From the sequence record OQ108497.1: 64,000 nucleotides of DNA. The stretch is one strand, 5' to 3'. A program made the translations under genes and the position numbers. Shown one piece after another: positions 35,059-51,100 of the stretch. The number at the start of each line of letters is the position of its first letter. Within the stretch, counting starts at the first letter, position 1. The DNA comes from Escherichia phage EC_OE_11. The notes below the pieces were generated by a model, which saw nothing but the letters and a program-made list of their open reading frames with translations, was not told the DNA's origin and searched no databases.

Positions 35059-35080
35059 AAGGAGGCTTTCGCCTCCTTTT
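35059..35080 (-). terminator. rho-independent terminator-like hairpin after AAA ATPase gene
   Basis: AGGAGGC-TTTC-GCCTCCT, followed on minus strand by TTTATTTAT. Confidence 0.5.
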
Positions 35081-35085: not shown

Positions 35086-36246
35086 TTAGTAAGAACGACC
35101 ACCAAACACATACTCTGTGTAGTTTTTACGTTCTTTGTTTTTAATAACAACTTCAATGTTGTTACCTTTATCATCGGTGAACATAAAGTGATAACCGTCA
35201 CCACCCATTGTACGGATGTGTTTTTCATCATACGTTAGCAAGATACGGTCTACACCCCAGTAGTAGTCACCTTCTTCATCTTTATCTTCTACGGTAACGA
35301 TCCCTTCCATTTCAGGAAGATGCTCTTCACCTAGTTTATGGTCTACAGCTACAACATAACGATTACCACTAAACAAACCTTGTGCTGTCATACCGTCAAT
35401 ATCGGTATCTGCCGAAACATCTCCTGTACGATCTACACCGTTAACTTTCAGAAGTTTAACCTCTTTTGCAGCATAGCGGTGTTCAGTAATACTGATACCC
35501 ATTAGTGCAAGTGCATCAGAGAATTTGTCATTAGGGTAACGGTTAAGTTCTTCTACTAATGACTGAACAATATCAAAGTTCAAATCCACGGAGAGATTAT
35601 AAAGCGTTTCAAAGTCTGGTAAGAAGGCTTTGTTCTCCAGATTTTTAGCCAGATAATCATCCATAGTAGCTTTAGGTAGTTTCTTATAGCTAAAACTGTA
35701 GAAAATACGGCTAGGACGATTACGCAAAAATTCTGATACATAACCATCATTTTTAGTCAATACAAACAGTTTGTCGTAGCCACCAACACCATCCAGCAGG
35801 GTAAGCAAACCATCTTGTGCATCTTTTTCAGCATACAGTTTATCAAATTCATCGATCATAATCATTACAGGTTGTGTGATTTTAGACATAAAATTGATAA
35901 AGCCTTCACCATTAAAAGCACTGCCGATAGAAATAGTAGGAATACCCATTTCACGAAGAGCAGAAGACAGCATTTTAGCTTGCAAAGTTTTACCGCTACC
36001 TTTCGTACCTTCAAGGAGAACACCTGTGTTTTTACCTTTGCGGCTAAGGAACGTTTTGATAATACGTTCTGATTTATCATCAGTATCACCGTATGTTACT
36101 GAAGGGACTTCCATATCGTTTTTAGGATACAGGAAGAACTCACCACTTTGAGTAACACCTACACCAAAAGTTCCTGCTGGAATTTCTTCAATATCTGTAC
36201 CAGATTTCTGACGCAGGAAGATTTGATTGCCGAATACTGTAAACAT
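35086..36246 (-). CDS. AAA-type ATPase (paralog 1)
   Basis: 386 aa; Walker A GTKGSGKT; Walker B-like IMIDEFDK; paralogous to 49973..51100 along most of the length. Confidence 0.5.
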   Translation of the reverse strand: MFTVFGNQIFLRQKSGTDIEEIPAGTFGVGVTQSGEFFLYPKNDMEVPSVTYGDTDDKSERIIKTFLSRKGKNTGVLLEGTKGSGKTLQAKMLSSALREMGIPTISIGSAFNGEGFINFMSKITQPVMIMIDEFDKLYAEKDAQDGLLTLLDGVGGYDKLFVLTKNDGYVSEFLRNRPSRIFYSFSYKKLPKATMDDYLAKNLENKAFLPDFETLYNLSVDLNFDIVQSLVEELNRYPNDKFSDALALMGISITEHRYAAKEVKLLKVNGVDRTGDVSADTDIDGMTAQGLFSGNRYVVAVDHKLGEEHLPEMEGIVTVEDKDEEGDYYWGVDRILLTYDEKHIRTMGGDGYHFMFTDDKGNNIEVVIKNKERKNYTEYVFGGRSY

Positions 36247-36266
36247 AGTTTTCTCCTCTATTTAAT

Positions 36267-36737
36267 TTAGTCAGATTCCCAAATGTTGTCTTTCTTAACC
36301 CACATTCGTTGATTATCTGAACCTCTATAACGTTTCGTTGTTGGTTGATTCATATCATACTTACCATCTATCACTATGTCAACCAGTTTTTTAATTTTTT
36401 CTGGAATTTCTTCAAAAAGATATCCTGTATATAAAACAATATCTTTTTTGTTTCCAAAACAATCTCTTACCTTCTCAAGAACATACTCTACAGTGTCAAT
36501 GTTCTCTTTGTCAAGAGGTTCACCACCTAAAACTGTTAATCCTTTAATGAAAGGTCGAGATAAATCTTCCAAGATAAGATCTAATGTTTCAGCAGTGAAC
36601 TCTTGTCCGTAGTTATACGACCAGGCTTTCTGGTTAAAGCAGCCACGGCAACCGTGGCTGCAACCGCTCACCCACAAAGAGCATCTTACACCGTCACCGT
36701 TGAGCATGTCAACAGGTTCATATCCGGCGTAATTCAA
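36267..36737 (-). CDS. nrdG: anaerobic ribonucleoside-triphosphate reductase activating protein
   Basis: 156 aa; radical-SAM cluster motif CSHGCRGCFN; directly downstream of nrdD with 4 nt overlap. Confidence 0.8.
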   Translation of the reverse strand: MNYAGYEPVDMLNGDGVRCSLWVSGCSHGCRGCFNQKAWSYNYGQEFTAETLDLILEDLSRPFIKGLTVLGGEPLDKENIDTVEYVLEKVRDCFGNKKDIVLYTGYLFEEIPEKIKKLVDIVIDGKYDMNQPTTKRYRGSDNQRMWVKKDNIWESD

Positions 36738-38533
36738 AAGTGTTTCTCCCTTTCTAGTACCTCTTGCATTTTACCTTTATTATAAGGGCGAGAGTTAGGG
36801 GCAGAAAGGTATCCTGACACTCTTCTGATCACAGATATGGATTCTTCTTCATGATTACCGCAACTTGGACACTCGAAGCCTTTAGCCGTTGCTTTAAATT
36901 CACCATGAAAACCACATTTGAAACACTGATCTACAGGTTGGTTCACGCCAAAATAAGGAATTTTGTTGTAGGCATAATCTACAAGAGTTTCCAGTGCTTG
37001 CAAGTTATTTTTAAGGTTTGGTGTTTCTACATAACCTATGTTCCCACCATTACTAATTTGTGCAAAACCTTCCTCATAATCCCATTTTTGGAACGGGGTA
37101 GTGTGCATCCATACAGGTTGATGGAAAGAGTTTGTCAAGTAGTCACGATCAATAGAACCAGGATAGCGATCATTTAACGCTTTGGCAAATTTATAGCACA
37201 AGGATTCTGCTGGTGTTCCATACAAACTAAAAGCTAAACCAGAACGTTCTTTAAATGTGCAACAGATATCCTTCATATATTGAAGGATGTTTTTACCCAT
37301 TGCTTTTGGATTGGTGTTATTTGGGTATAAAATTTCCATAGCTTCTGCTAAACCTACATAACCGATACTAATAGAGGCATAACCACCCTCAAATAGTTTA
37401 CCAATCTCTTCATTAGCTTCTAGTCGAGCTAAAGCCCCTTCCATAAACAATGTAGGGTTTTGAGATGCTTTGGTATGTCTAATACGGTTAACACGTAGCA
37501 TATGTGCCTTATACGCCATCTCCATATGTTGTTCCAACAGTTCAGTAAATAAGATGCCCTTTTCACGGGACTCTGCTGCAATGATAGGTAAGTTTAAAGA
37601 AACCACGCCTAAGTTGAAACGACCATCATATTTTTCACCTTGCTCTGTTGCATAATATGACAAGAAACTACGGCAACCCATGCTTGTGACGCGACCATCT
37701 GAAGATCCTGTAACTTCTTTGTTTAAAGGTACAGAGATAAAATCAGGATAAATGCGTTCAGCACAACACTCCATTGCCAGTTGCTTCAAATCATAGTTTG
37801 GATCGCCAGCTTTCATGTTAACACCATCTTCCAAGAAGAAGATAACTTTAGGAAACACAGGAGTTACCCTATCTTTTCCTAATCCTTGTTTGTGCACCAT
37901 TAGGTAGTTTTTAGTGATCATTCTACCAAAAGCAGAGGTATCCAAGCCTAAACTAATTGTTATAAAAGGTGACTGACCATTTACACTCATCAAGGTGTTC
38001 ACCTGGTAGATTAAAGTTTGCATTGCATCGTAAACCTGTTTATCTACCATACGCATAGCAATATCATAATCGCCAACATCGGCATAGATTTTATTAAAAC
38101 TTGCTTTAACGTATTGACTAAGCCCAGTATCAATATGTGCACAAGTTTGTCCACCATATTGGCTAGAAGCTACTGCTTGAATAATTTGAGTTAGGACAGT
38201 AGTTGCTACACCGATAGATTTTGGTTTTTCAATATGTGCATTACCAATACGGAAACCGTTCTCAAGCATATCTTGGTAATTTACCAGGCAACAATTAGTT
38301 AGAGGTGAGAGTAAATAATCTAAATCGTGAATATGACCATACCCACTTTTATGCCATTCTGCCAGATCTTCCGGTAAAATATGGGTCATTGCCATGTGCT
38401 TGCTTAGGATACCTGCTAGTAAGTCTCGGTGAGTATTAACAATCATTGCAGGTTTGTTTGCATTTTCACGAGTAAATTCTTCGGATGTTTGTTCGAGGAA
38501 TCCGATTACATCCTCATATAGTTTTTGGGTCAT
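36734..38533 (-). CDS. nrdD: anaerobic ribonucleoside-triphosphate reductase (class III)
   Basis: Start set at ATG 38533 (MTQKLYEDV) behind GGAGG RBS; C-terminal Zn-ribbon (CFKCGFHGEF ... CPSCGNHEE) and glycyl-radical motif RRVSGYL. Confidence 0.85.
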   Translation of the reverse strand: MTQKLYEDVIGFLEQTSEEFTRENANKPAMIVNTHRDLLAGILSKHMAMTHILPEDLAEWHKSGYGHIHDLDYLLSPLTNCCLVNYQDMLENGFRIGNAHIEKPKSIGVATTVLTQIIQAVASSQYGGQTCAHIDTGLSQYVKASFNKIYADVGDYDIAMRMVDKQVYDAMQTLIYQVNTLMSVNGQSPFITISLGLDTSAFGRMITKNYLMVHKQGLGKDRVTPVFPKVIFFLEDGVNMKAGDPNYDLKQLAMECCAERIYPDFISVPLNKEVTGSSDGRVTSMGCRSFLSYYATEQGEKYDGRFNLGVVSLNLPIIAAESREKGILFTELLEQHMEMAYKAHMLRVNRIRHTKASQNPTLFMEGALARLEANEEIGKLFEGGYASISIGYVGLAEAMEILYPNNTNPKAMGKNILQYMKDICCTFKERSGLAFSLYGTPAESLCYKFAKALNDRYPGSIDRDYLTNSFHQPVWMHTTPFQKWDYEEGFAQISNGGNIGYVETPNLKNNLQALETLVDYAYNKIPYFGVNQPVDQCFKCGFHGEFKATAKGFECPSCGNHEEESISVIRRVSGYLSAPNSRPYNKGKMQEVLEREKHF

Positions 38534-38553
38534 TAATCCTCCGTGGAAAATAA

Positions 38554-38576
38554 AAGCCAGCATTAAGCTGGCTTTA
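38554..38576 (-). terminator. rho-independent terminator-like hairpin
   Basis: AAGCCAGC-ATTA-AGCTGGCTTT; on minus strand followed by TTTTATTTTCC; between 38623 stop and nrdD RBS. Confidence 0.5.
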
Positions 38577-38622
38577 GGGTGGATCTTTATTTTAAATCTT
38601 TTTCGTAAGATTGTCCTTGATC

Positions 38623-39573
38623 TTAGTCAAGGTTTTTGGTAATACGTGTACAACCGTCAGAAGTCAAACCGTCAACTTGAGTTTCCCAAGTACCATGAAT
38701 ATTTCGGAACAATGTTGTTACACCTTTTGGTTCATTAATAATGATTGCCATAACAAGTTTAGGATCGATAACAGACATAATCTTTTCCTCAATACCCTCT
38801 GTAATAACGTTATTGCGCACAATATTAATTGCATCTTCTTGTACAGTAAGAACACTTACGTTCTTAAGAGTATATACCTGCTGTGTAGTGTAAATGATAC
38901 GAACATAACTTACAGAACGAGTAGGCACAGGTTTACGCGGTCGGCGAAAACGTGGTTTTGGTGAAGATTCAGTTTTACTTTCATCTTTTGAATAATACTC
39001 CTCAAACAGTTTAGTAAATGTTTTTACATCAACTACAAACCGATCTTTCCGATATGGAGAATTCTTATGTGCACCATTAATACCACTGTTTTCATCGAAG
39101 AAAGTAATGTTTTCTTCAGTTGAATACATTAGATAATGATCTGCATTGTTCCAATGTGGTTGTGGACAACGAGAATTACAAACGGAAAGCAGATAATTAA
39201 TATTTTCTTTCGTGGCCTCAGTATCCAGGAAACACGTATTATGCACAGTCAGTTGTACTTTTTCAGCCATATCCTTTTCTTTATCCCCATTGGTAAGATA
39301 TTCAGTACGAAGAATTTCCAGAAAATTTTCAGGTGTTACTTCCATAAATGTATATTCAGGATGAAGTTCCATATATTCAAATCCACAACCATCTAATTGC
39401 TGTAGAAAGTTAGGGTAGAAGAACAAATCATTAACACTGTGAATCAGATCATTGATTTCTGCTTCAGTTGTGTAACCAAAACTTTTGTGAATTGCCTCGT
39501 TAAGAGTATGCAGGATACCCATCTCTTCTGCTGCTTTTTTAACTTCCAGTTTATTAGCGTAAAATGCAATCAT
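38623..39573 (-). CDS. hypothetical protein
   Basis: 316 aa ORF; no recognisable motif. Confidence 0.35.
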   Translation of the reverse strand: MIAFYANKLEVKKAAEEMGILHTLNEAIHKSFGYTTEAEINDLIHSVNDLFFYPNFLQQLDGCGFEYMELHPEYTFMEVTPENFLEILRTEYLTNGDKEKDMAEKVQLTVHNTCFLDTEATKENINYLLSVCNSRCPQPHWNNADHYLMYSTEENITFFDENSGINGAHKNSPYRKDRFVVDVKTFTKLFEEYYSKDESKTESSPKPRFRRPRKPVPTRSVSYVRIIYTTQQVYTLKNVSVLTVQEDAINIVRNNVITEGIEEKIMSVIDPKLVMAIIINEPKGVTTLFRNIHGTWETQVDGLTSDGCTRITKNLD

Positions 39574-39590
39574 TATGTTCTCCTTCTAAA

Positions 39591-40025
39591 TTAGTTTAAA
39601 ATTTCTTTTGCAATGGTAGAAGCAAGTTTTCCATCATATTGATTCGGATACTCTGCTTTAAGGTGTTTCATCATATCTGGCATTTTCTTGCCTGTCAAGG
39701 CAAATTCTTCAGCAATAGCTCGAAGATCATCTTCAGATAGCATTTCTGGCAAATATTTTTCCAGAGCGGTGATATCACGCATAGCTCGCTCACATTTGCT
39801 AATGGAGGCATTAACTTTCTTAAGTGAGTCTAGTTCCTCTTTAGCGTGTGCAATACCAATCTTAACAATGTTAATCATAATATCGTCTTCTGATTTGTTT
39901 AGATTTGCCTTTTGAGTACGAGCAAGGTCAAACTCACCAATAATATTAGTTAACAAAGCAAAAGCACCCTTATCGGTTGTACGTGCTAAGATACGATCTG
40001 CTTTCATTTGTGTCACAATAGACAT
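39591..40025 (-). CDS. GatB/YqeY-domain protein
   Basis: 144 aa; pattern LEKYLPEMLSEDDLRAIAEEFALTGKKMPDMMKHLKAEYPNQYDGKLASTIAKEILN matches the YqeY family consensus. Confidence 0.55.
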   Translation of the reverse strand: MSIVTQMKADRILARTTDKGAFALLTNIIGEFDLARTQKANLNKSEDDIMINIVKIGIAHAKEELDSLKKVNASISKCERAMRDITALEKYLPEMLSEDDLRAIAEEFALTGKKMPDMMKHLKAEYPNQYDGKLASTIAKEILN

Positions 40026-40037
40026 TCTATTCTCCTC

Positions 40038-40610
40038 TTATTTGCTAATGCTTTGAGTTTTGTTTACAACACGGTTTATTGCCAGTGAAGCCCTAGGCTC
40101 TGCAATACCTGTTGCATAGATATAAGGATGACCTTTTGGAGACTCCCTCATACCGAATGAACCTAATTCTAAACCATATTCATCCTCTACGTCAACCCCA
40201 ATATTAGTGGGTACTAAATATGTTTTAACTCCATAATAAGTAGAGAAGAAACAGCGCATAGCGTTAGCATACTCTTCAATTGTAGCATCAGGGTAGAACT
40301 CAATCAACTCCAATTTCAAGAAAATATTAAAATGGGTATCATCTAAATTTTCTTCTGTACGGTAACATGGTGTTAGTGCCATATACGGATTACCTGCTGC
40401 AAATTCAAAACCATCCTTCTCCATTTGCAGGAAAGATTGTTCTGCACTAGCTACATAGTATTTACCGTTAGGATGCCCTAATGGGCGATCCTCTTTATTT
40501 TCTGGTAGTGTGTACGCCAGTATATCAGTATCCACGAGATATGGAACTTCTAACATTTGTGCAAATCGACCATAGTAATCAATAGCTTGAGCTATTACTG
40601 CAACATTCAT
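40038..40610 (-). CDS. hypothetical protein (possible class II aaRS-like core motifs)
   Basis: 190 aa; LTPCYRTEE (fRxE-like) and ATGIAEPR (GxGxxxR-like) are weakly reminiscent of class II aminoacyl-tRNA synthetase motifs 2 and 3; tentative. Confidence 0.25.
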   Translation of the reverse strand: MNVAVIAQAIDYYGRFAQMLEVPYLVDTDILAYTLPENKEDRPLGHPNGKYYVASAEQSFLQMEKDGFEFAAGNPYMALTPCYRTEENLDDTHFNIFLKLELIEFYPDATIEEYANAMRCFFSTYYGVKTYLVPTNIGVDVEDEYGLELGSFGMRESPKGHPYIYATGIAEPRASLAINRVVNKTQSISK

Positions 40611-40858
40611 GATCGACCTCCGTTGCGGAATGCACGTTTAGTAATGTTTGACATAGTGATCAAATCTTGAAGCGTCATATCAGGAAAATGCTGTTCAAGA
40701 ACACCCTCAACAGCGCCTACAATATCTGATAACTCAATAAGTTGCATCAGCTTGCAATCTTGATCAATAGCATCTTGAAGTTCATAAAGCTCTTCTTGAA
40801 TCTTAGCAACAGAACCATATTCCTCTTTGCTAATCTCCTTCAAATGATACCCTGCCAC
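40607..40858 (-). CDS. hypothetical protein
   Basis: 83 aa ORF overlapping next start by 4 nt. Confidence 0.3.
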   Translation of the reverse strand: MAGYHLKEISKEEYGSVAKIQEELYELQDAIDQDCKLMQLIELSDIVGAVEGVLEQHFPDMTLQDLITMSNITKRAFRNGGRS

Positions 40859-40868
40859 TTTAACCCCC

Positions 40869-42605
40869 TTAGTTTACCAGTTTATTTATGTCTGGTAAAA
40901 GATTTATTTCACCTAAAAAATCACCTTCACCTTCCTCTAGCCAACTCTCATATGCTTGTGCATGATTATAGTTACCATCAAAAGACTCTGCAACAAATTT
41001 TTCTACAGTTTTTCGAGATGTGCCAGCGCCAAATACACCAAGTTTAATACCATTGATCGGTAAAGTGGTGCTTGTAGGTACTTTCTCTGTTGCAACACGG
41101 TTGATATCTATAATCTCCTGTACGGTTGTGTTCCATTGTAAGCATTTAACACAACGGGTATGCGCTACATACAGTAGGTTTCGCTCTGCCTCTTCTAGTC
41201 CTACCCACTCACCAGTCTTTTTATCATAGTTGGAAGGAAAATCATTAGCAACAATAACCTGATCCCACTCCAAACCTTTAGACTTATGTGCTGTAGTCAA
41301 TGTGACTTTTGCTGTAGGAGAATTTCTATGCGTTCTAAGTGTATGTGCTATAGTGTTTGCCTTACCAGAAACTACAATGTTTAACAAGCGTTTAGCATCT
41401 GGATCAGCCTCTGCACACTCGACAAATTCATTCCAGTCTGCGTAAGGTAATACAGTTTCATGTTTTACTTTCTCAATATCTCCTCTCCGAAGAGCATTAA
41501 CACTATCTACCATAGAGATAAAATCCCTGGTATCTACGTTAATAATAATTTCTTCCCCATCTGCAATACGATCCATTGCCTCCATAAGCAAGGTTAAATT
41601 CTTGCGAAAGATGATGGTGTAAGGTTTTGTATAGTCTACAACATCTGATTTGTAGCTACCTACTACAGTATCAAAGCCTTTACCAACCAAAGGATGACGC
41701 AAAGGTTCTTTATCACTTAAAATCATATTCGCAATGTTTGCCACTTTGGGGCCAAAACGGAAGCAAGCAGTTAATGGAAGCTCTGCCCCATATGTAGAGG
41801 TTTCCTTCATCATATTTTGGCTTCCACGGAACTGGTAGATGCTCTGATATTCATCCCCCACCACCACTACTTGTTTTGCAGATTTAGCATTTCGCAGAAT
41901 AGACAAGAATGCAGGGTTAACATCCTGGAATTCATCCCCAAAAATAATGTCATAACCAAGATCAGCACCTGATAACTCAAACAATTTTACATAGGTGTCA
42001 TGAGTCATCAAAGTATCTGTGTTAGGATCAATGCGCTCTCGCCACAATTGTTTTGCATACTTAACTACTTCTGTAATTAGTTTGTGTTCGTTAATACCTT
42101 TTCTTTTAATATCTGCAAGATGTACACTAGGAAAATGTTTACGGCTGATAAAAGGATCATCCGAAAATTCAAACTTACCTACGGTTTGCTTGATCATTAA
42201 ACCAATCATAGCACGAGTTAAAAGTGTTTTCCCTCGTTTATCAATAAGATTATTAATCTTGAATTTCTTTGCTATCTCGCTACCTGTACCTGCAACGTTA
42301 ACATACTGTCCTTCTGGTCGTGACAGTTTTGCACGTAAACGATGATCCAGGAATTGATAGCAAATGGAATGCAATGTACGGCATTCTACATTTGGTGGCA
42401 TCTTACGCCGTGCTTCTTCTGCCATGCTTTTATTGAAAGCTAAGTAAAGAATGCGATCTTCTGTACTGTTAGCCAGCAAATAAAGTGTTGACGTTTTGCC
42501 TGACCCAGATTTAGCTTGGATAGTTAAAAAGCGATGATCTGGAAAAGCCTCCTTAATAGCTGTTTGCTCTTCTGTTGGAGTAAAACTCAACTCTTTCTTA
42601 GCCAT
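40869..42605 (-). CDS. UvrD/Rep-family (SF1) DNA helicase
   Basis: Start set at ATG 42605 (MAKKELSF) behind AGAGAGG RBS; Walker A AKSGSGKTST; motif II IFGDEFQDVNP; UvrD-like arrangement. Confidence 0.7.
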   Translation of the reverse strand: MAKKELSFTPTEEQTAIKEAFPDHRFLTIQAKSGSGKTSTLYLLANSTEDRILYLAFNKSMAEEARRKMPPNVECRTLHSICYQFLDHRLRAKLSRPEGQYVNVAGTGSEIAKKFKINNLIDKRGKTLLTRAMIGLMIKQTVGKFEFSDDPFISRKHFPSVHLADIKRKGINEHKLITEVVKYAKQLWRERIDPNTDTLMTHDTYVKLFELSGADLGYDIIFGDEFQDVNPAFLSILRNAKSAKQVVVVGDEYQSIYQFRGSQNMMKETSTYGAELPLTACFRFGPKVANIANMILSDKEPLRHPLVGKGFDTVVGSYKSDVVDYTKPYTIIFRKNLTLLMEAMDRIADGEEIIINVDTRDFISMVDSVNALRRGDIEKVKHETVLPYADWNEFVECAEADPDAKRLLNIVVSGKANTIAHTLRTHRNSPTAKVTLTTAHKSKGLEWDQVIVANDFPSNYDKKTGEWVGLEEAERNLLYVAHTRCVKCLQWNTTVQEIIDINRVATEKVPTSTTLPINGIKLGVFGAGTSRKTVEKFVAESFDGNYNHAQAYESWLEEGEGDFLGEINLLPDINKLVN

Positions 42606-42606
42606 T

Positions 42607-43083
42607 TCAACCTCTCTTAATTTGTTTAACAAGCATAGGAACAAAATCTCGTTTTAAAATTTGTTCAATAATGTGATCAGGTAGCTGTTGGAAATTATAA
42701 TTAAAAGCTACTGTTTCACCTTTAGGTGTTTCTACTCGCACATATAACATGTTGCGAAGTTTATCCACTTGTGCTGTATATTCTAAACCACGTAATTGAT
42801 GCATTGCAAACATCAAATCATCAGTTTCAGTTTGGAATCTATCCCTTGTCTGCATCAAGGATAAGGCAAAAGGTAGATTTTCCCTAAGAGCCACCTTCTT
42901 AGGCACTAGTGAAGGGAAATACTCCCCAATAACTTCCTGTGTAAGCTGAATACACTCTTTTTCAAGCTGGTTTTGTTCCTTGAGTTCACAAACACTTTTT
43001 TGTAAAGTGTTAACCTCTTTTTGCAAAGCTGCTAGTTGAGCACTTAACTTTCTTTTTTGATTACGACCAAAACGTTTAGACAT
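42607..43083 (-). CDS. hypothetical coiled-coil protein
   Basis: 158 aa. Confidence 0.3.
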   Translation of the reverse strand: MSKRFGRNQKRKLSAQLAALQKEVNTLQKSVCELKEQNQLEKECIQLTQEVIGEYFPSLVPKKVALRENLPFALSLMQTRDRFQTETDDLMFAMHQLRGLEYTAQVDKLRNMLYVRVETPKGETVAFNYNFQQLPDHIIEQILKRDFVPMLVKQIKRG

Positions 43084-43091
43084 ATTTCCCC

Positions 43092-43607
43092 CTAGTAAAA
43101 CCCCTTAACAATTTGTATTAACTCGGCACAACGGTTGACCAACTTTTCCTCGTACAATACACGTTGTGGCATATGTTGTATAATATACTCCATTTGCTCA
43201 TGCCATGTCCACTTTTCTTTTTTGTCTGGGATAACATCACTAGCACGAGAATTATCTTTTAATGTTTGTATAATCCAATTGCTTGGAAAGTGCTCTCCAC
43301 CTTTCTTAAATGGTTTATAGTGGCCTAGAGTGAATTGAGAATCCCCTGTTAGAGCACCCAATTTATTTAGATGGATAATCAAACTACGAAACACGTAGTA
43401 TTCATAGATGTTATCCACCGTATAGCAAGCATAATATTTCAAGATGCCCTTATCTCGCGGATACTTACCAACATCCAGATTACACCAGTTGACATTTTCT
43501 GGATCATAGTGGTGTTCCTTAAGCCATATTTCTCTTTCATCAAAGTCTGGATATATTACCGCCCTGCTTACAGAGTCAACAAGTGGAGATTGAGCATCAA
43601 AAAACAT
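43092..43607 (-). CDS. hypothetical protein
   Basis: 171 aa. Confidence 0.3.
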   Translation of the reverse strand: MFFDAQSPLVDSVSRAVIYPDFDEREIWLKEHHYDPENVNWCNLDVGKYPRDKGILKYYACYTVDNIYEYYVFRSLIIHLNKLGALTGDSQFTLGHYKPFKKGGEHFPSNWIIQTLKDNSRASDVIPDKKEKWTWHEQMEYIIQHMPQRVLYEEKLVNRCAELIQIVKGFY

Positions 43608-43628
43608 TATATTTTCCTTATTGGTTTG

Positions 43629-43994
43629 TTAAACGTTTTCTAAATCTTTTAAGGCATTACCCAACGTTAGAACAATAACATCGTTTGCTGCCTCTTCCCC
43701 ATTGATATTGGTGAAATTTGGTGTGACAAAAGTAACCATATAAAACTCGTCCACCTGGAAGATAGCAATAACACCATCCATCTTAACATCTTGACGAAAG
43801 GAAAAACCAATCATCTTCTCTTGCAAAGGCATATCCCCTTCCTTCATTACCGCCAGGGAGTTTTCAGGAATGTTATATTTATCTGCTCCGATGTAGATGT
43901 ACGTAATGTTATCTTTATCGTGATGATACAGGGTTGCTTTTTCCATGTCTAAACCTGACAGATCAAATACGTTAATTTCTTGTGTAGTCTTCAT
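43629..43994 (-). CDS. hypothetical protein
   Basis: Start set at ATG 43994 behind GGGAGGA RBS (ORF track extends to 44069). Confidence 0.3.
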   Translation of the reverse strand: MKTTQEINVFDLSGLDMEKATLYHHDKDNITYIYIGADKYNIPENSLAVMKEGDMPLQEKMIGFSFRQDVKMDGVIAIFQVDEFYMVTFVTPNFTNINGEEAANDVIVLTLGNALKDLENV

Positions 43995-44358
43995 AAATAT
44001 CCTCCCAAATCCAATAATCATCTGTGTAAGTAGGATGCCTTTTATCCCACTCTGTTCTAGCCCAAGCAACCGCTGCTACCAACACATCACCATGACAAGG
44101 TTGAGGTGAGCAGAAGCAAACTAAGTCTTTCCCTTCTAATTCTAACAAATCTTCAAGAGTGATTTTACCACAACGAATTTGCTCCCACAACCACTCTTTA
44201 TATCTTTGTATAGTTGATCCTCGTGGTTCATCATCCTTTAACTTGAAAGGATTTGCAAACTTTGAGGCTTTTAACCCCATATGAGGCATAGCTCTACCAA
44301 TGTACACTGCACCTTCAGGTATTACTTTACCTAAGTGGTAAAAATTTAATACTTTCAT
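43972..44358 (-). CDS. hypothetical protein (DUF4326-like Cys/His motif)
   Basis: 128 aa; motif CFCSPQPCHGDVL resembles the DUF4326 signature; tentative. Confidence 0.3.
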   Translation of the reverse strand: MKVLNFYHLGKVIPEGAVYIGRAMPHMGLKASKFANPFKLKDDEPRGSTIQRYKEWLWEQIRCGKITLEDLLELEGKDLVCFCSPQPCHGDVLVAAVAWARTEWDKRHPTYTDDYWIWEDIYEDYTRN

Positions 44359-44359
44359 A

Positions 44360-44710
44360 TTAACCCAAACACATCCGCGCGATCAAGCCTTGTATAAATT
44401 TATTAGCTTCTTTACTGTCGTAGTCAGTCTCTTCTGGATATCCATCTTCATCGTACACAACTGTACCTTCAATATACCCTGCCTCAATTAAGGCGCGGAT
44501 CATATCAAATTGCCAGCATGAGTTACCAAATGGACGTTTACCATTAAAACACTCTTCTTCTCTCCATAACGTAGAGAGTAGTTGTCGGAAATATTCCCGT
44601 ACAGTGACAGTACCAAGATCTGAATCCTCAAACATAACATCCAGAGCATCAGGATTGCTTTTCTCTACGTAAGGAATATATTTAACACCATTAATAGTTA
44701 CATCAAGCAT
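44360..44710 (-). CDS. hypothetical protein
   Basis: 116 aa. Confidence 0.3.
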   Translation of the reverse strand: MLDVTINGVKYIPYVEKSNPDALDVMFEDSDLGTVTVREYFRQLLSTLWREEECFNGKRPFGNSCWQFDMIRALIEAGYIEGTVVYDEDGYPEETDYDSKEANKFIQGLIARMCLG

Positions 44711-45073
44711 TTATTTCTCCTTATCATCATATTCTAGGAACATATCTGCACGATATGCTTTACGCTCTTCAAACTTAGCAGGATTTACAACAATAAGCAA
44801 TACAAGGTTAACATCTAAATACTTCTTAACAAATAGAAATAAATCTTTTCCACAGTTAAAACCTACACCAGTATAGGCATCCCCATATTGATCTACTGAT
44901 TTAATCTTCTTACTAACCGTACACTCTATGCTATTCTTTTCTTCTTGGTATAAGGCTTTCCCACCCCAATATGTAAAGAATTTAGTACCGTCAGCACCAA
45001 GTTTAAAACCTTCTGTTGCATGTCCAGCAAATGAAAGTAAACATAACCAAGTAATCATCAGGTACTTTAGCAT
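44711..45073 (-). CDS. hypothetical secreted protein
   Basis: Start set at ATG 45073 (MLKYLMITWLCLLSFAGHA signal peptide). Confidence 0.3.
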   Translation of the reverse strand: MLKYLMITWLCLLSFAGHATEGFKLGADGTKFFTYWGGKALYQEEKNSIECTVSKKIKSVDQYGDAYTGVGFNCGKDLFLFVKKYLDVNLVLLIVVNPAKFEERKAYRADMFLEYDDKEK

Positions 45074-45074
45074 T

Positions 45075-45557
45075 TTAACCACCCAATTGCAAATGTTTAG
45101 AAAGAACAATATCCCATTGATCACCACAACCGTTATCTATGCGGAACATAATGTACGTATCATCTTCTTCTACAACATACCGTACCTCATAGGAGTTACA
45201 ACAGCCTTCCCAATTTTTAACGGCTTCTGGTGTATGATGTGTAAGAATTTCATTACCATCATATGACCAAAACAAAGGGGTAAGGTTTTCGAAGGTCAGT
45301 GAAGTAGGGTTTACTTCATCTTTAACTGCTTCCTCATATTCCTTATGCGTTTGTACTGCTTTAGTTAGTGTACTCATGTCTATCTCCTTTTCTCCTTCTT
45401 GACTATGGAGGATAGCGAACTCTCTAAACTCCACCTCACGCCATGTTTTCAGGTAGTGCTTTATAATTTGATCAACATCTGCCTGTTCAACGTTACTTTT
45501 CAAGCAATAGTAGTCATGGTCTTCACCCATTCTACCCCATATGCTATACATTGTCAT
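45075..45557 (-). CDS. hypothetical protein
   Basis: 160 aa. Confidence 0.3.
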   Translation of the reverse strand: MTMYSIWGRMGEDHDYYCLKSNVEQADVDQIIKHYLKTWREVEFREFAILHSQEGEKEIDMSTLTKAVQTHKEYEEAVKDEVNPTSLTFENLTPLFWSYDGNEILTHHTPEAVKNWEGCCNSYEVRYVVEEDDTYIMFRIDNGCGDQWDIVLSKHLQLGG

Positions 45558-45825
45558 CTGATTGATCCTTCACATTGTTCTTGGCATACACAGGAATAAC
45601 ATCATGGTGATCTTTATTACTTTCGTCTGTTAAAGCCCAAAACAACTTACCTGCCGGATGTTTAAAGATGTAAGCAATAGGTTCCTCTTCCTGTGCTTCT
45701 TTGCTACGGATGCCATCCCGCCAGGCAAGCCAAGTGTAGATCATCATCTCTTGACGTTCTTCTTCATTAGGCCACAGATGGGGTAGAAAGTTTTTATCAA
45801 ACCATTGCTTAAACTCTTCAGTCAT
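45544..45825 (-). CDS. hypothetical protein
   Basis: 93 aa; AAGGAG RBS. Confidence 0.3.
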   Translation of the reverse strand: MTEEFKQWFDKNFLPHLWPNEEERQEMMIYTWLAWRDGIRSKEAQEEEPIAYIFKHPAGKLFWALTDESNKDHHDVIPVYAKNNVKDQSDDNV

Positions 45826-45835
45826 AGTCTACTCC

Positions 45836-46000
45836 TTAGCGTACAAAGTTAACTTCTGCTTCTTTCAGCTTTGACACTTCTACATAACCACCATGATCAT
45901 CTTTAATCCATTCTTTTCCTTTACGGATGATAACAGGATATGTAGAGTGAGTAAGTTTAGGTACAGATCTTTTTGTTTTAGTGATAGAAATGTTTTGCAT
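45836..46000 (-). CDS. hypothetical small protein
   Basis: 54 aa ORF (below track cutoff) with AAGGAG RBS. Confidence 0.25.
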   Translation of the reverse strand: MQNISITKTKRSVPKLTHSTYPVIIRKGKEWIKDDHGGYVEVSKLKEAEVNFVR

Positions 46001-46060
46001 AGTAATCTCCTTAGTAAATTTTACATAGAGTCTAGATTATTTAGTAGGTAGAGTCAATAA

Positions 46061-46327
46061 CTAATTACTGTTAGATCTGTACTCTGTCTTCCATTCACAA
46101 TGGTAAACTTCAACAGGTTCTAACTTCCAGTGTTCAGGAACTAGTTCAGGACAATATCTACAAAAGAGAAATAGATAGATAACTAAGACAGGTATTAAAT
46201 AGTAAAATGGTATACGATCATAACCATACTTACGAGATAACATGTAGACATATAGATAGGGTATAACAATTAATCCTATAACTATAAGTAAGAAGAGAAG
46301 TATAAACCTTAGTGTAGTAACATCCAT
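46061..46327 (-). CDS. small membrane protein
   Basis: 88 aa, two TM helices. Confidence 0.3.
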   Translation of the reverse strand: MDVTTLRFILLFLLIVIGLIVIPYLYVYMLSRKYGYDRIPFYYLIPVLVIYLFLFCRYCPELVPEHWKLEPVEVYHCEWKTEYRSNSN

Positions 46328-46491
46328 AGTATTCTCCTATACAGTAATATACTCTGTTCCTGCCCCTCCATGAGTGACAGGAACAATATCTATAGAGAAT
46401 ACTAACTCGCTTCGCTCGTCACCTTTCAGGTTTAGGGTAGCATGTTTTTCTGAAAAAGTCAATACTCTCCACAAAACTTTACAAAATACTT

Positions 46492-46764
46492 TTACATAGG
46501 TACAACAGAGTCTGTTTTGAAGTCGTACATATGATTTACACCTGTGATTTTTGACATAGAGATTGCACGTTTAACACCTGCAATTACCTGGTCTGTCTTC
46601 TTAATCTCTTCACGGAACTTACGCACAGTTAGAGAGAAGAAACGATGATCCATCCATTGACGATTCACACGATCACGCTTGAAGTGACGGAAATCTTCAA
46701 TCTGTTTATTGCGCAATCGGCGCAGTACATGCAATAATTTATAGTAAGGGTGTTTATTTTTCAT
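46492..46764 (-). CDS. hypothetical basic protein
   Basis: 90 aa. Confidence 0.3.
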   Translation of the reverse strand: MKNKHPYYKLLHVLRRLRNKQIEDFRHFKRDRVNRQWMDHRFFSLTVRKFREEIKKTDQVIAGVKRAISMSKITGVNHMYDFKTDSVVPM

Positions 46765-46767
46765 AAT

Positions 46768-47196
46768 TTATTCTCCAAATCGAAAATCGTCAATATCATC
46801 AAACCATACACAATGGTGAGTCCTTTCTTTTTCTGTTGCAGACATTGTTTCAACAGCTTTAGGACTAAGCACAACAGGAATGTAACGAATAGGTCGTTCA
46901 TAATAGTAGCCATACTTTTCTGTATTAGCTGCCTCAAAGACTTTACGGCGTTCTTCAAGATCTTCTATGGTGAATCCTACCATATAACCATCATATTTGC
47001 TACCCCATCCTTCCTCACTTTCAACAATCGGGATATAAAAGCCGTTACGCGTCCCTGACGCTGGTTCTTCTTGAGCCTGAAGGCAAGCCTCCCATCCTGC
47101 TTTAAAGACGTTATAGAGCGATTTACGCACGTTATGAGTGCCGCTTTCGCTTGCTGGATAGAGTTCATTAAATTTATCTTGGATTTGTTGTGTCAT
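46768..47196 (-). CDS. hypothetical protein
   Basis: 142 aa. Confidence 0.3.
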   Translation of the reverse strand: MTQQIQDKFNELYPASESGTHNVRKSLYNVFKAGWEACLQAQEEPASGTRNGFYIPIVESEEGWGSKYDGYMVGFTIEDLEERRKVFEAANTEKYGYYYERPIRYIPVVLSPKAVETMSATEKERTHHCVWFDDIDDFRFGE

Positions 47197-47339
47197 ACTC
47201 GCCCCTTAGTGATTATTTGACCAGCTAAACAAATAGCTTGTAGTACAATAAAGAAGTAGCCTAATTTTACACTACCCAATACCCAGAATGCAATGTTTGC
47301 AAACAAACAAAAAGCAATATTAAGTCTAAAGAATAACAT

Positions 47340-47606
47340 TTAATCCCCTTCATATTTAGGTAAAGGCATATATGCCACAATAGGAGGGTAATCAAAGTGA
47401 AAATGATGGTTCACCACAATAATCTTACCAGACATACTTTTATGCACTTCACAATACCCTTTTTCACCATCTTCCATTACCACCACATACTCACCTAGTG
47501 GGATATCGTATGGATCTTCTACTTTTACCCATTCTGTCATTTTGTAAACTCCTCGTAGTAAGGTAAAGCCTTGACCAGTTGTTCTGAAGTGCCATTTTGC
47601 ACCCAC
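47340..47606 (-). CDS. hypothetical protein
   Basis: 88 aa. Confidence 0.3.
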   Translation of the reverse strand: MGAKWHFRTTGQGFTLLRGVYKMTEWVKVEDPYDIPLGEYVVVMEDGEKGYCEVHKSMSGKIIVVNHHFHFDYPPIVAYMPLPKYEGD

Positions 47607-47685
47607 GTAACACCATTGTCAACAGAAACATACCCTTTTTTGTCAATAAATTTACGCAGACAGCCAGTGAACTTATTTTTGTAGA

Positions 47686-47853
47686 TCATTTCTTCTTTCC
47701 TTTTTGATTACAGCCCCCATCACTCTCTTGCCAAACTTCCGATCTGAATTCCATCTCAAACCACTCACCACCGCAAAAACGGTTATGTTCAACACGTCTA
47801 TCTTCCTTCATTGCTTCTTTAGCTTCGATAGAAGTTAGTTCGATGTTTTGCAT
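47686..47853 (-). CDS. hypothetical small Cys-containing protein (first gene of leftward block)
   Basis: Start set at ATG 47853 behind AAAGGAG (ORF track version runs into the divergent region). Confidence 0.3.
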   Translation of the reverse strand: MQNIELTSIEAKEAMKEDRRVEHNRFCGGEWFEMEFRSEVWQESDGGCNQKGKKK

Positions 47854-47905
47854 TTGTTTTTCTCCTTTCATTTGGTATGCGCTAATCTTAACAAAATAAA
47901 AATGT

Positions 47906-47927
47906 ATGTCAATACTTGATTTGACAT
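47906..47927. promoter_or_regulatory. palindromic element in divergent promoter region
   Basis: ATGTCAA-N8-TTGACAT inverted repeat containing a TTGACA -35 hexamer, between leftward and rightward gene blocks. Confidence 0.35.
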
Positions 47928-47971
47928 TAGTTTCTGGTACTCTGTGGGTATCGTAACAAAAGAGGTTAGAT

Positions 47972-48262
47972 ATGAACATCACACTAGCAACTAAGAATAT
48001 TACAGAAACTTTTGATGGTTTTGGCATTATTATTGCTGTTCATGGGCATAACGAAAAATGGTTAGCCTCTTTTGAAGAGGACAAAGAACGTAATGTACGT
48101 TTGAATGCACCAATCAAAGTTTTACACCAGGTAAGTGAGAATAAGAAACAATGGAGATCATACAAAGAGTGGAACATTACGAACGAGTTAATACACAAAC
48201 TTGACAAAGTGATAAACATGTTCGACAATGCACCAAGCAGTGCAAAACGTGTTTTACTATAA
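47972..48262 (+). CDS. hypothetical protein
   Basis: 96 aa; AGAGG RBS. Confidence 0.3.
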   Translation: MNITLATKNITETFDGFGIIIAVHGHNEKWLASFEEDKERNVRLNAPIKVLHQVSENKKQWRSYKEWNITNELIHKLDKVINMFDNAPSSAKRVLL

Positions 48263-48273
48263 AGGAGAGTGAT

Positions 48274-48627
48274 ATGAAAATTGTACACGATGAAATTCAA
48301 TTTGAAGAGAGTGATCTTCTTGATCTGGATGTGACACTAAGTAAACTGATCTACAACGCACTTTCTGCATATCGTGCAAAAGTGATAGCCACAAACAATG
48401 TTAAAATTCCTAGTGGGTTACTTCGTCGGATGTACCCACACGCTAAAGGTGACTATCTACCTTATATGGAAGAACGAGCAGCAGAACACTGGTTAGAAAT
48501 TCTTGAAAAAATGGAGTCCTCTTTTAAAGATTCAACTCCACCTGAAGAAGTTAATGAAAAACAACGGCAAGAGCGTTTAGAAGGTCGTATTTTGTTTGCT
48601 AAGTATTTCCATAATTTGTGGAGCTAA
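48274..48627 (+). CDS. hypothetical protein
   Basis: 117 aa; AAGGAG RBS. Confidence 0.3.
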   Translation: MKIVHDEIQFEESDLLDLDVTLSKLIYNALSAYRAKVIATNNVKIPSGLLRRMYPHAKGDYLPYMEERAAEHWLEILEKMESSFKDSTPPEEVNEKQRQERLEGRILFAKYFHNLWS

Positions 48628-48725
48628 ACATATCTGGTAAAATCACTTATATGTTCTTAGTATACTTGTGTAAAGAAGTTATCTAATAGGTGTTGAGTGG
48701 ACTATTAAATTAGGAGGGCTTTAAT

Positions 48726-49064
48726 ATGTTTAGTAAAGAAATGAGAGAAGTAATTGCCACTTTGGTAGTTGATCATGGTGTTGAAGTTGAGCGTCACGTT
48801 TGGAACGATGAACCTCCTTTCTTCGATTTGGCATCACGAGCTAAAAGTCATATGCACCTGCTGGAAGACGGTAATGAGTTTGTTCTCCGTATGCGTTATG
48901 ATCGAGAGTTTCGAATTCCGCTTGACACTGAACCAGATGGTGTAGTAATGTGGTTGGCAGAACATTTCGCATACGATGCACTACATGGAAGAAGTTTTGG
49001 TAATGAGCGTTGGGATGCCATTTGTCGTAAGCATAATATTGAACCAGAGTACGGAGTTTTATAA
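48726..49064 (+). CDS. hypothetical protein
   Basis: 112 aa; AGGAGGG RBS. Confidence 0.3.
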   Translation: MFSKEMREVIATLVVDHGVEVERHVWNDEPPFFDLASRAKSHMHLLEDGNEFVLRMRYDREFRIPLDTEPDGVVMWLAEHFAYDALHGRSFGNERWDAICRKHNIEPEYGVL

Positions 49065-49315
49065 TGTTAAGTATCAAACCTAAAATGATAACAGCAGATG
49101 AAGCAGACTTTATTTTCAAATGTGGACGTGTATGGAGAGAATTCACAAAAGGGAATGAAGTGGTTGTTGTTGTCGAACACAAGATATCTATCCAGGATCT
49201 GTTTGGACAATATGTTGATGTTATTAAATTAGGTATTGACAAGGGTTTAGTTGAGGTGTTAACATTAGATCAAGTTGAAGCAGAGCACCTCGATAAAGTG
49301 GTGGTTGAATTTTAA
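49064..49315 (+). CDS. hypothetical protein
   Basis: 83 aa, overlapping start/stop. Confidence 0.3.
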   Translation: MLSIKPKMITADEADFIFKCGRVWREFTKGNEVVVVVEHKISIQDLFGQYVDVIKLGIDKGLVEVLTLDQVEAEHLDKVVVEF

Positions 49316-49335
49316 AATACAGACGGGAGAAAGGT

Positions 49336-49509
49336 ATGAGTTTCTTTGTTACAGTATTTATGGCTATCTGGATTGTAGTCTCACTCGTTCTTTTCCTGGT
49401 GGGTTGTCTGGAAGAGATTAAGAAAGCAGTTATTTGCGGTTTCTTTGGCTTTATTATCTCTCCTGCCTGGATGTGGTTCTTCATTATGATTGGTTTCCTT
49501 AAAAGGTAA
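49336..49509 (+). CDS. small membrane protein
   Basis: 57 aa (below track cutoff), GGGAGAAAGG RBS, two hydrophobic helices. Confidence 0.3.
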   Translation: MSFFVTVFMAIWIVVSLVLFLVGCLEEIKKAVICGFFGFIISPAWMWFFIMIGFLKR

Positions 49510-49523
49510 GTGAGGAATAAAGA

Positions 49524-49961
49524 ATGAGTAAAACAAACGCAATCGCAGATAAAGCAACGGATGTACTTCTGAACATGGTTAACGTCACTATTCAAACAAT
49601 GAGTGATGTTGTGGAGTTTGGAAAACAACAAATTCCAGAAGTAATCCATCAATTACTAGTGTGGAAAGCAGTATCCGCAGGTTTATGGCAACTTTTTAGT
49701 ATTTGCTTTATGTTTATTACTTTTATTGCTGTGCGGAACCTCGTAAAAGCAATTAAAGATAAAGAATGCCTGTGGTCACGAGATCGCTATGGTGAAGTAT
49801 CTGCTTTACCTATTGTTGGTCTTGTTGTCTGTGCTTTCTTTTTCTTTTTAGGATTTGTTATTTTCTTTTCGAATTTTGATTGGCTAAAAATCATTATTGC
49901 ACCAAAAGTGTATCTGATTGAATTTGCTGCTGATTTAATTCGTTCATCTCAACAAAAATAA
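49524..49961 (+). CDS. membrane protein
   Basis: 145 aa with two long hydrophobic helices; function unknown. Confidence 0.3.
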   Translation: MSKTNAIADKATDVLLNMVNVTIQTMSDVVEFGKQQIPEVIHQLLVWKAVSAGLWQLFSICFMFITFIAVRNLVKAIKDKECLWSRDRYGEVSALPIVGLVVCAFFFFLGFVIFFSNFDWLKIIIAPKVYLIEFAADLIRSSQQK

Positions 49962-49972
49962 AAGGGGTTAAA

Positions 49973-51100
49973 ATGAAATACACGATTTATGGTGATATTG
50001 TAAGTGTAAATAAAGATATGGGTGTGGAATCTAATTATCTTCCACCTGGATTCTATACTGTTAGTCGTGATCCCCTTGGCAATTATTTTTTAAGCCGTGG
50101 TAATCTAACAGGTGTACCGGATGTTCTGTATGGTGAAACAGAAAAACGAGCAAATCACGTTATCCGTACATTCCATCGCCGGAGTGCACAAGGTAAAAAT
50201 ACAGGTTTGCTTCTGACAGGAACTAAGGGCAGTGGTAAAACTATGTTAGCCAAGCTCATTAGTCGTGACCTTGTAGAAGAAGGTATTCCAACTATTATGG
50301 TTACTCAAGCCTACAGTGATGCTAATTTCATTGAACTTATTAGCAAGATCACCGACAAAGCAGTGATTATTTTTGACGAGTTTGATAAAGTATATGAGAA
50401 GAAACAAGATCAAGAAGCACTTCTCACTTTGTTAGATGGTACTGGCAGTGGTAATAAACTGTTTATTCTAACTAAAAACAGTGGCTTTATCTCTGAATTC
50501 TTTCTAAATCGTCCTAGTCGTGTGTTTTATAATTTTAATTATGATAAAATCTCACTAGAAACTATGATTGACTATTTAGATAAAAACCTGGATAACAAAG
50601 CACACTTTGATAATTTCCAAAGACTTTGGGATGTAAGTTTAGAGTTGTCCTTTGATGTGATCCAAGGTATAGTAGAAGAACTTAATTTCTACCCTGATTT
50701 ATCCTTTAAAGAATGCATCTCTATGATGGGCGTTTCTTTGGGTGGTGGTAATAAATGGGATATCAGTAGCGTTATTATTAATGGAAAACTTCAGAAAGTT
50801 AGCTGGGTATCTAGTTGGCATAACTTTACACCTGCAATCTTTTTAGGTGGCTCGTGCACACTAGACGTGTACTTGTCATCTCCAAGTGATGCAGATTCTA
50901 AAGAAGCCCTTGCTAATAGCTCTTACGTGGTTTTTGATGATGAAGGCGATGCTCGAATTCCGTTGAATGCGACAAAAATGAAAGCAGACCTTATCACAGG
51001 CGGTAAAATCGTTGTGTTTAGTGATGATCCAGAAGATTCTTTCCGTATTGTTCTGGAACCAACTATCACCAATGGTGCAACTTTGGCAAGTGTGTTTTAA
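49973..51100 (+). CDS. AAA-type ATPase (paralog 2)
   Basis: 375 aa; Walker A GTKGSGKT; Walker B-like IIFDEFDK; colinear similarity to 35086..36246. Confidence 0.5.
   Translation: MKYTIYGDIVSVNKDMGVESNYLPPGFYTVSRDPLGNYFLSRGNLTGVPDVLYGETEKRANHVIRTFHRRSAQGKNTGLLLTGTKGSGKTMLAKLISRDLVEEGIPTIMVTQAYSDANFIELISKITDKAVIIFDEFDKVYEKKQDQEALLTLLDGTGSGNKLFILTKNSGFISEFFLNRPSRVFYNFNYDKISLETMIDYLDKNLDNKAHFDNFQRLWDVSLELSFDVIQGIVEELNFYPDLSFKECISMMGVSLGGGNKWDISSVIINGKLQKVSWVSSWHNFTPAIFLGGSCTLDVYLSSPSDADSKEALANSSYVVFDDEGDARIPLNATKMKADLITGGKIVVFSDDPEDSFRIVLEPTITNGATLASVF

Follow-up and report, generated by a model that had tools for sequence, protein, structure and literature searches.

Two long-diverged AAA ATPase paralogs of Escherichia phage EC_OE_11 and their place in a widespread phage protein family

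What kind of ATPases are the two related proteins that Escherichia phage EC_OE_11 encodes 14 kb apart on opposite strands, and does their presence reflect a recent duplication? In the window analysed here, a stretch of 64,000 nucleotides from this phage (record OQ108497.1), gene A1 (positions 35086-36246, minus strand) encodes an AAA ATPase of 386 residues and gene A2 (49973-51100, plus strand) one of 375 residues, as read from the open reading frames and their translations. An earlier note, made from the sequence alone, had described the two as colinear paralogs of AAA type that resemble no standard phage ATPase. As detailed below, A1 and A2 are annotated ATPases of a known family and not a new kind of system. 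Their cores are stripped-down modules of the classical AAA type, and the two copies appear to have separated long ago.

The paralogy is clear over the N-terminal parts of the proteins. Residues 2-253 of A1 and 3-256 of A2 share 119 identities in 254 positions (47%), with 70% positives and an E value of 1e-81 (BLASTP), and both open reading frames lie where the earlier note had placed them. The motifs GTKGSGKT, LLTLLDG and KLF(V/I)LTKN are exact in the two proteins, as it had reported; two other consensus motifs have to be corrected for A2, which reads IIFDEFDK and not (I/V)(M/I)IDEFDK, and which carries SEFFLNRPSRVFY where the slightly different SEF(L/F)RNRPSR had been quoted. The last 125-135 or so C-terminal residues could not be aligned by pairwise BLASTP. 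When alignments of the respective clades were compared with hhalign, the C-terminal domains of the A1 and A2 clades matched with 70% probability (E 4e-5, 103 columns), and each matched an intermediate clade (P0041-46) more strongly, with 96.8% and 90.9%, respectively. The joint clade alignment of this domain is colinear, with a common N-G motif, an F..G motif, an acidic patch and a C-terminal aromatic residue. On the evidence of these alignments, the C-terminal domains of A1 and A2 are homologous, yet strongly diverged.

Both proteins match PHROG 2376, a family named 'ATPase', over nearly their entire length: A1 with an E value of 5.7e-104 (residues 1-376 on profile positions 2-359 of 363) and A2 with 1e-107 (residues 1-367 on positions 1-357). 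The next PHROGs, clamp loader and DnaC-like loader, reach E values of only 1e-5 to 1e-8, so that the absence of a match to a standard phage ATPase (terminase, packaging, clamp loader) is borne out; PHROG 2376 is itself uncharacterised, and thus the proteins do not fall into a well-known phage ATPase family. The AAA assignment is sound, since PF00004 (AAA) is the sole Pfam family to pass its gathering score, with 29.4 bits for A1 and 38.9 for A2 against a cutoff of 21.2. NCBIfam gave only loader and Hda matches far below threshold (Hda 29.8 bits against a cutoff of 194.8, PRK08116 27.5 against 189), and the best of the PADLOC defence models, mad8, matched the P-loop only (E 1e-3, 16-17 bits), which is noise. 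What has to be given up is the view of the pair as an unrecognised oddity: the two genes and their widespread family have been catalogued before, and dozens of GenBank and RefSeq records label them 'ATPase'.

An 18-kb region containing the genes is about 98% identical to the genomes of Justusliebigvirus (vB_EcoM_PHB05, ESCO8, outra and Bas61 EmilieFrey), which belong to the subfamily Stephanstirmvirinae and are phi92-like myophages of E. coli. A1 corresponds to gp184 of PHB05 (YP_009984552.1) and bas61_0073 of Bas61, and A2 to gp214 (YP_009984582.1) and bas61_0105. Both PHB05 proteins are labelled 'ATPase'; in Bas61 the labels are 'hypothetical' for the A1 counterpart and 'FtsH-like protease' for that of A2, and records of further relatives read 'putative ATPase or Zn metalloprotease'. 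By tblastn the family was found in 302 of 50,697 phage records. It occupies two places per genome in Justusliebigvirus and related Klebsiella phages, as well as in Lactobacillus phage SAC12B, while Phapecoctavirus genomes have a single family gene. Members are also present in GAP32-like jumbo phages (such as GAP32_367), in Salmonella 7-11-like and Proteus phages of the Grimontviridae, in Aeromonas and Pseudomonas phages, and in Bastillevirinae, Brochothrix phage A9 (gp41), Lactococcus 949-like phages (ORF82 of phage 949), Lactobacillus phages, 90-kb Staphylococcus phages and crAss-like phages. In metagenomes the family forms hundreds of clusters at 50% identity. No homolog from a clearly cellular context was found; one protein assigned to 'Salmonella' lies on a contig of 371 kb, the size of a jumbo-phage genome.

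The anatomy of the family was defined with an AlphaFold2 model of A1 (single chain, built from a 36-sequence alignment, pLDDT 87.7) and with column statistics over 118 near-full-length homologs, in the numbering of A1. The model predicts a five-stranded beta domain (residues 1-45), a helix (56-68), an AAA alpha/beta core (74-190), a four-helix lid (192-248) and a beta-rich domain (260-386). On the minus strand, the family-specific N-terminal beta domain (taken as residues 1-50), with the conserved pattern LPxGxY...G(F/Y)(Y/F)L...P...YG, is encoded at 36097-36246. The AAA core with its preceding helix (56-190; 35677-36081) contains the Walker A motif G80-T87, Walker B residues D132 and E133, the sensor 1 residue N166, the arginines R177 and R180 of the second region of homology (SRH), and the aromatic residue F111 in the short beta2-alpha2 loop. 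The lid (191-250; 35497-35676) is followed by the acidic, beta-rich C-terminal domain (251-386; 35089-35496), highly diverged from that of A2 (residues ~254-375; 50732-51097, plus strand). The Walker A glycines and lysine, D132, E133, N166, R177, P178, R180, F224, D225, E232, E233 and N235 are all invariant in the 118 sequences, and position 111 is F or Y in 115 of them. When nine distant members were aligned, the N domain, the full AAA core and the lid were kept, and the C-terminal part varied; in the crAss-like member only an acidic tail is left of it. The members of PHROG 2376 have the same architecture (N domain, AAA, lid and variable C domain) and the same invariant residues as A1 and A2. 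No transmembrane or hydrophobic segment and no HEXXH motif is present in either of the two.

Several lines of evidence place this core closest to the classical AAA clade, which includes p97/Cdc48, Bcs1, FtsH, Rpt and NSF, as far as sequence profiles and the predicted model can tell. The family profile, searched against all PDB sequences, recovered the D1 and D2 domains of Cdc48/p97 first (E ~1e-12), and the HMMER alignment sets LLTLLDG on the LLTxMDG of p97 and NRPSR on the LRPGR of p97 D2. A profile running from Walker B to the lid, with Walker A removed, retrieved exclusively classical AAA proteins (p97 D2 at 7e-4, then Cdc48, AFG2, VAT, paraplegin, PEX1, NSF and NVL), and no clamp loader, DnaC or ORC chain up to an E value of 1. 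Foldseek ranked Bcs1 at the top (E 4e-8), followed by proteasomal Rpt subunits, YjoB, FtsH, p97 and NSF. Most hallmarks of the classical clade are present: a Walker A of the form GxxGxGK(T/S), a Walker B hhhhDE, a polar sensor-1 residue (118 of 118), an SRH with two arginines (R177-P-S-R180) and a lid that has no sensor-2 arginine. The lid carries the motif F224-D225-(V/I/M)-(I/V/L)-Q, and an arginine at the GDxR-equivalent position is found in none of the 118 sequences. However, two hallmarks are missing or reduced. In the model, beta2 (104-107) and alpha2 (114-121) are joined by a loop of six residues, with no helical insert carrying an Ar-Phi-Gly pore loop 1; A1 has F-N-G in this loop and A2 has Y-S-D. 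Also lacking is the pore-loop-2 segment ahead of the LLTxMDG helix: only 13 residues separate E133 of Walker B from L147 of LLTLLDG, and here HMMER opens gaps of 9-12 residues relative to p97/Cdc48. For this reason, A1 and A2 are best described as a stripped-down classical-type AAA module.

The comparison with individual systems supports the same description. The phage proteins share LLTxxDG, the sensor-1 asparagine, the R-P-x-R arginines of the SRH and the D...E lid motif with p97/Cdc48/VAT, NVL/Rix7, AFG2, PEX1 and NSF. They differ from p97/Cdc48-type segregases in having a single AAA module, devoid of the Ar-Phi-Gly helical insert and the pore-loop-2 insertion, an N domain that forms no double-psi barrel and no recognised OB fold, and an extra C-terminal beta domain. 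Bcs1 is the AAA protein that translocates the folded Rieske protein in mitochondria. Identity to it is only 15-20%, and the phage proteins have neither its transmembrane anchor nor the BCS1_N domain nor its long segment between Walker B and the SRH. No sequence relation beyond the AAA core links them to bacterial Trip13/Pch2, the CBASS-associated HORMA remodeller, or to B. subtilis YjoB; no HORMA or CD-NTase partner gene lies near A1 or A2, and there is no PADLOC defence match. Clamp-loader subunits (T4 gp44, RFC, gamma/delta') and DnaC/Hda resemble the phage proteins in their compact core, similar loop lengths and a Ser-Arg at the SRC position. Nevertheless, unlike clamp loaders, the phage proteins have two invariant arginines (R177 and R180), no sensor-2 arginine, and a beta-rich C domain in place of a helical collar. 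The initiator-specific helix that follows beta2 in DnaC, DnaA and Hda is not present in the model, where only alpha2 lies between beta2 and beta3.

The domains that flank the core are orphans, with no relatives recognisable at the level of sequence or fold in our searches. Pfam searches with the isolated N and C domains, accepting E values up to 10, gave nothing usable, and for the C domain, of about 130 residues, neither a known fold relative nor a protease-like fold match was obtained. An N-domain profile searched against 1.84 billion representative proteins recovered many proteins of 350-430 residues matched at their N terminus and having the same architecture. Its top hits were giant proteins with SprB repeats, which we rejected as domain homologs: they match only profile positions ~14-38, and do so repeatedly, which indicates a motif-level resemblance to a hairpin. 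This hairpin motif, LPxGxYxV...G(F/Y)(Y/F)L, covers residues ~14-40 of A1 (~36127-36207, minus strand); PF13573 SprB repeats match it dozens of times in adhesin-like proteins 1.2-7 thousand residues long (P0121-P0138), outscoring true members. Despite their divergence, the C-terminal regions of A1, A2 and the homologs compared with them (in L004-L007 and L011-L013) all contain an acidic patch, EDKDEEGDYYW in A1 and FDDEGD in A2, and DEDEDEYDEDDNNEEYDNEDG makes up the whole tail of the crAss-like cr115_1 protein. One aspartate of these regions is invariant in three clades.

Does the pair stem from a recent duplication, as the term 'duplicated pair' had implied? By identity over residues 1-253, the homologs form clades around A1 (40 cluster representatives), around A2 (21, including the Phapecoctavirus gene) and in jumbo phages (35), besides several smaller ones. 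The identity between the A1 and A2 clades is 46-47%, and that of either to the jumbo-phage clade 47-48%, so that the split between A1 and A2 is as deep as the split from the jumbo-phage homologs. In a neighbour-joining tree with 200 bootstraps, support is 100% for the A1 clade and 93% for the A2 clade; cluster 9 joins A2 in 98.5% of bootstraps, and cluster 7, a third clade, joins A1 only weakly (61%). An exclusive clade of A1 and A2 was recovered in 0 of 200 bootstraps, and we reject a recent tandem duplication.

Gene order helps to tell which copy is the resident. Phapecoctavirus (tuntematon) and Pseudomonas phage PsgM04F share the arrangement of A2, an ATPase gene followed by a CapR/T5orf172 gene, at the corresponding position. 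In the region of A1, Phapecoctavirus has nrdG, the two small genes and the HAD/PRTase/Macro-TerC-TelA genes with no ATPase in the block, whereas in Klebsiella phage KP13-26 these small genes and HAD/PRTase have an A1-type gene immediately upstream. Among the records listed, A1-type genes are confined to Justusliebigvirus and related Klebsiella phages, and always accompany an A2-type gene. Because the position of A2 is shared and the Phapecoctavirus block has no ATPase, comparison of these genomes identifies A2 as the resident copy, at a position common to Stephanstirmvirinae, and A1 as an old addition, derived from an ancient duplication or acquired from a related phage.

As to what these proteins do, we favour, with modest confidence, the reading that A1 and A2 are soluble ring ATPases that would remodel a protein or nucleoprotein target in early or middle infection, a reading that draws on sequence features and the structural model. 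Judged by their sequences, the proteins are soluble and catalytically intact, with conserved trans-acting arginines. Since these arginines, R177 and R180, are invariant, hydrolysis is inferred to need an oligomeric ring, which would have six subunits or, like Bcs1, seven. The aromatic residue conserved at position 111 belongs to the short beta2-alpha2 loop, which lines the ring axis in relatives, and would point towards this axis; the N domain together with the divergent C domain would pick the target. The proteins would thus use ATP to remodel a protein or nucleoprotein complex of host or phage, or act on it as segregases. Their expression would come from the non-structural (early/middle) genome arms, and the two paralogs would be specialised for different targets via their C domains. 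As pore loop 1 is short and the pore-loop-2 insertion is missing, gripping and prying of folded partners in the manner of Bcs1 or Trip13 seems, by analogy, more likely than processive unfolding.

The genomic setting is consistent with this proposal. In nine lineages compared, the gene lies in non-structural regions, usually within runs of small early-type open reading frames or among auxiliary metabolic genes and tRNAs, and no partner gene is conserved between these lineages. This suggests that the enzyme works on its own, its target being a host factor or a conserved phage factor. Some points weigh against a remodelling role, however. The core looks as minimal as that of a clamp-loader subunit, with its six-residue loop and 13-residue spacing; the glycine of the F-x-G loop is replaced by aspartate in A2 and throughout the A2 clade; the distant crAss-like homolog lies within a replication gene block; and no functional study of the PHROG 2376 family was found in the searchable literature. 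The remodelling or chaperone function put forward in the earlier note best fits the affinities to classical AAA proteins seen in profile and fold searches, although we infer it rather than observe it.

The main rival to a remodelling role is an accessory function in replication or recombination, with A1 and A2 acting on DNA or the replisome as ATP switches or loaders similar to clamp loaders, DnaC or Hda; on balance, we consider this unlikely. The matches to the clamp-loader and DnaC-like loader PHROGs (E 1e-5 to 1e-8) and to Hda, the DnaC-like PRK08116 and IstB in NCBIfam, all below threshold, point in its direction, as does the minimal core with short loops like those of clamp-loader subunits. 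However, once Walker A is excluded, p97, Cdc48, AFG2, PEX1 and NSF still score and the loaders vanish, and the two invariant SRH arginines, the GDxR-equivalent position devoid of a sensor-2 arginine and the lid motif all fit classical AAA proteins, with a C domain that is beta-rich and forms no helical collar. In the crAss-like phage cr115_1 the homolog is found between genes for a RuvC-like resolvase and Mre11, beside a primase, and an AAA+ ATPase is among the four conserved genes of the replication block of crAss-like phages (bioRxiv 10.1101/2020.07.20.212944); outside these phages, the gene is not in replication modules. A1 does share a strand with the genes for DNA polymerase, primase-helicase, UvrD and ribonucleotide reductase, but this replisome is of the T7 type, with a T7-like PolA, a gp4-like primase-helicase and no clamp or DnaB. 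T7-type replication needs neither a clamp nor a DnaC-type loader.

Other explanations concern partners and labels. That A1 and A2 form one hetero-oligomeric ring, as do Pex1/Pex6, Rpt1-6 or Yta10/Yta12, and not two machines, would agree with the constant company of an A2-type gene noted above, with metagenomic pairs apparently on the same contig, judged from equal contig sizes (P0037/P0088, 151,530 bp; P0026/P0103, 154,881 bp), and with cores that are 47% identical and keep the trans-acting arginines in both proteins. We regard it as rather improbable: most lineages, including Phapecoctavirus, have a single copy, and therefore the ancestral state was homomeric; the split is old, with no bootstrap joining A1 and A2 exclusively; and the two genes lie far apart on opposite strands, in different transcription units. 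Quite improbable, in our judgement, is a function of A1 within the neighbouring Ter-like or HAD-PRTase-Macro nucleotide-metabolite module, a tie to which the earlier note had alluded. A1 adjoins the HAD-PRTase-Macro genes in Justusliebigvirus and in KP13-26, and the homolog of Proteus phage Privateer lies near genes for TerD, NAMPT and RtcB; yet Phapecoctavirus keeps the whole block with no ATPase in it, a terminator-like hairpin (a pattern match) stands between A1 and the genes downstream, and the neighbours differ in all other lineages. The GenBank labels that make relatives an FtsH-like protease or a Zn metalloprotease can hardly be credited. FtsH chains do occur among the fold matches of the AAA core, but the N-terminal transmembrane helices and the M41 peptidase domain with its HEXXH motif that characterise FtsH-like AAA proteases are not present, and the C-terminal end is instead a beta domain of about 130 residues; the label is refuted at the sequence level.

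Both genes are located amid non-structural genes, of nucleotide metabolism for A1 and in a run of small open reading frames for A2. In plus coordinates, A1 is flanked by the HAD/PRTase_3/Macro genes on one side and by nrdG on the other, as previously described, but its transcription runs the opposite way, in the order nrdD-nrdG, A1, two small genes, and HAD, PRTase_3 and Macro. The long minus-strand arm that holds A1 also encodes a T7-like DNA polymerase, a gp4-like primase-helicase, UvrD and the class III ribonucleotide reductase. Inside nrdG, about 110 nucleotides upstream of A1, a consensus scan found a sigma-70-like promoter match, TTGACA-17-TATGAT (11 of 12 positions; 36354-36382, minus strand), a match that does not constitute functional evidence. 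A plus-strand unit begins at a divergent intergenic region near 47.9 kb, and A2 is its sixth or seventh gene. As the earlier note had it, A2 follows a pair of small predicted membrane proteins: one of 57 residues (49336-49509, plus strand) with two hydrophobic segments by hydropathy, whose open reading frame falls under the 60-residue cutoff used for open reading frames, and one of 145 residues (49524-49961, plus strand) with two transmembrane-like segments and a match to phrog_3054, of unknown function. We take these two as context only. Terminator-like hairpins, each with a 9-bp stem containing 5 GC pairs and a T-rich tail, lie 7 nucleotides past the stop of A1 (35058-35079, minus strand) and 16 nucleotides past that of A2 (51116-51137, plus strand); they are pattern matches from a consensus scan that, over the whole region, was not enriched relative to shuffled sequences. 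By their position, each ATPase gene may end its own transcription unit.

Some features of the surrounding genes deserve mention in their own right. Directly after A2 comes a gene for a 390-residue protein (51175-52347, plus strand) with three CapR-homology domains and a T5orf172 domain, which matches phrog_681 'endonuclease'. It is followed by a gene for a NADAR-domain protein (52348-52899, plus strand; PF08719, E 2e-36), labelled 'YbiA-like N-glycosidase' in Bas61. The NADAR gene and the Macro-domain gene (32463-33296) jointly point to ADP-ribose-related chemistry in the phage. The Ter-associated block (29218-34696, minus strand) encodes a HAD hydrolase, a ComF-like PRTase_3 protein and the Macro protein, then TerC-like and TelA-like proteins ('tellurite resistance'), and is kept in Phapecoctavirus. 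The UvrD-type helicase (40869-42644, minus strand) has 591 residues here, 579 in Bas61 and 925 in PHB05 (gp191), and is labelled 'intein-containing UvrD' in phage ZYD; this size variation looks like a polymorphism in the presence of an intein. NrdD is broken into two to three pieces in several relatives. In Privateer, the family gene (L005 7147-8085) is directly followed by one for an SPFH/band-7 membrane protein, recalling FtsH-HflK/C; as a functional hint this was dropped, being seen in that lineage only.

The genes themselves having been annotated before, what is new in this work is their placement in the classical AAA clade, the loss of pore-loop elements, the orphan flanking domains, the distinction between resident and accessory copies, and the rejection of the protease and clamp-loader labels. 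Going further, one may speculate, at a level that we hold to be rather unlikely, that the family is a phage-specific, stripped-down remodeller of the classical AAA type whose orphan N domain and rapidly evolving acidic C domain allow it to grip and take apart a conserved complex of the host (nucleoid-associated or immune, for instance) soon after infection begins, as a general engine of host takeover or counter-defence, and that the second copy in Justusliebigvirus was retargeted via its C domain. If true, it would be an engine not yet described, and virulent phages as unlike each other as enterobacterial 150-kb and jumbo myophages, Grimontviridae, Herelleviridae, Lactococcus 949-like phages and crAss-like phages would all have retained it. 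In cells, AAA remodellers are machines of central importance, but those encoded by phages outside replication and packaging are almost unstudied. The paralog pair of phi92-like phages is a natural experiment in target specialisation, and one of these phages, Bas61, grows on E. coli K-12. With a family so widespread and catalytically conserved, and with flanking domains of its own, knowing what the substrate is could bring to light a step that lytic infections have in common.

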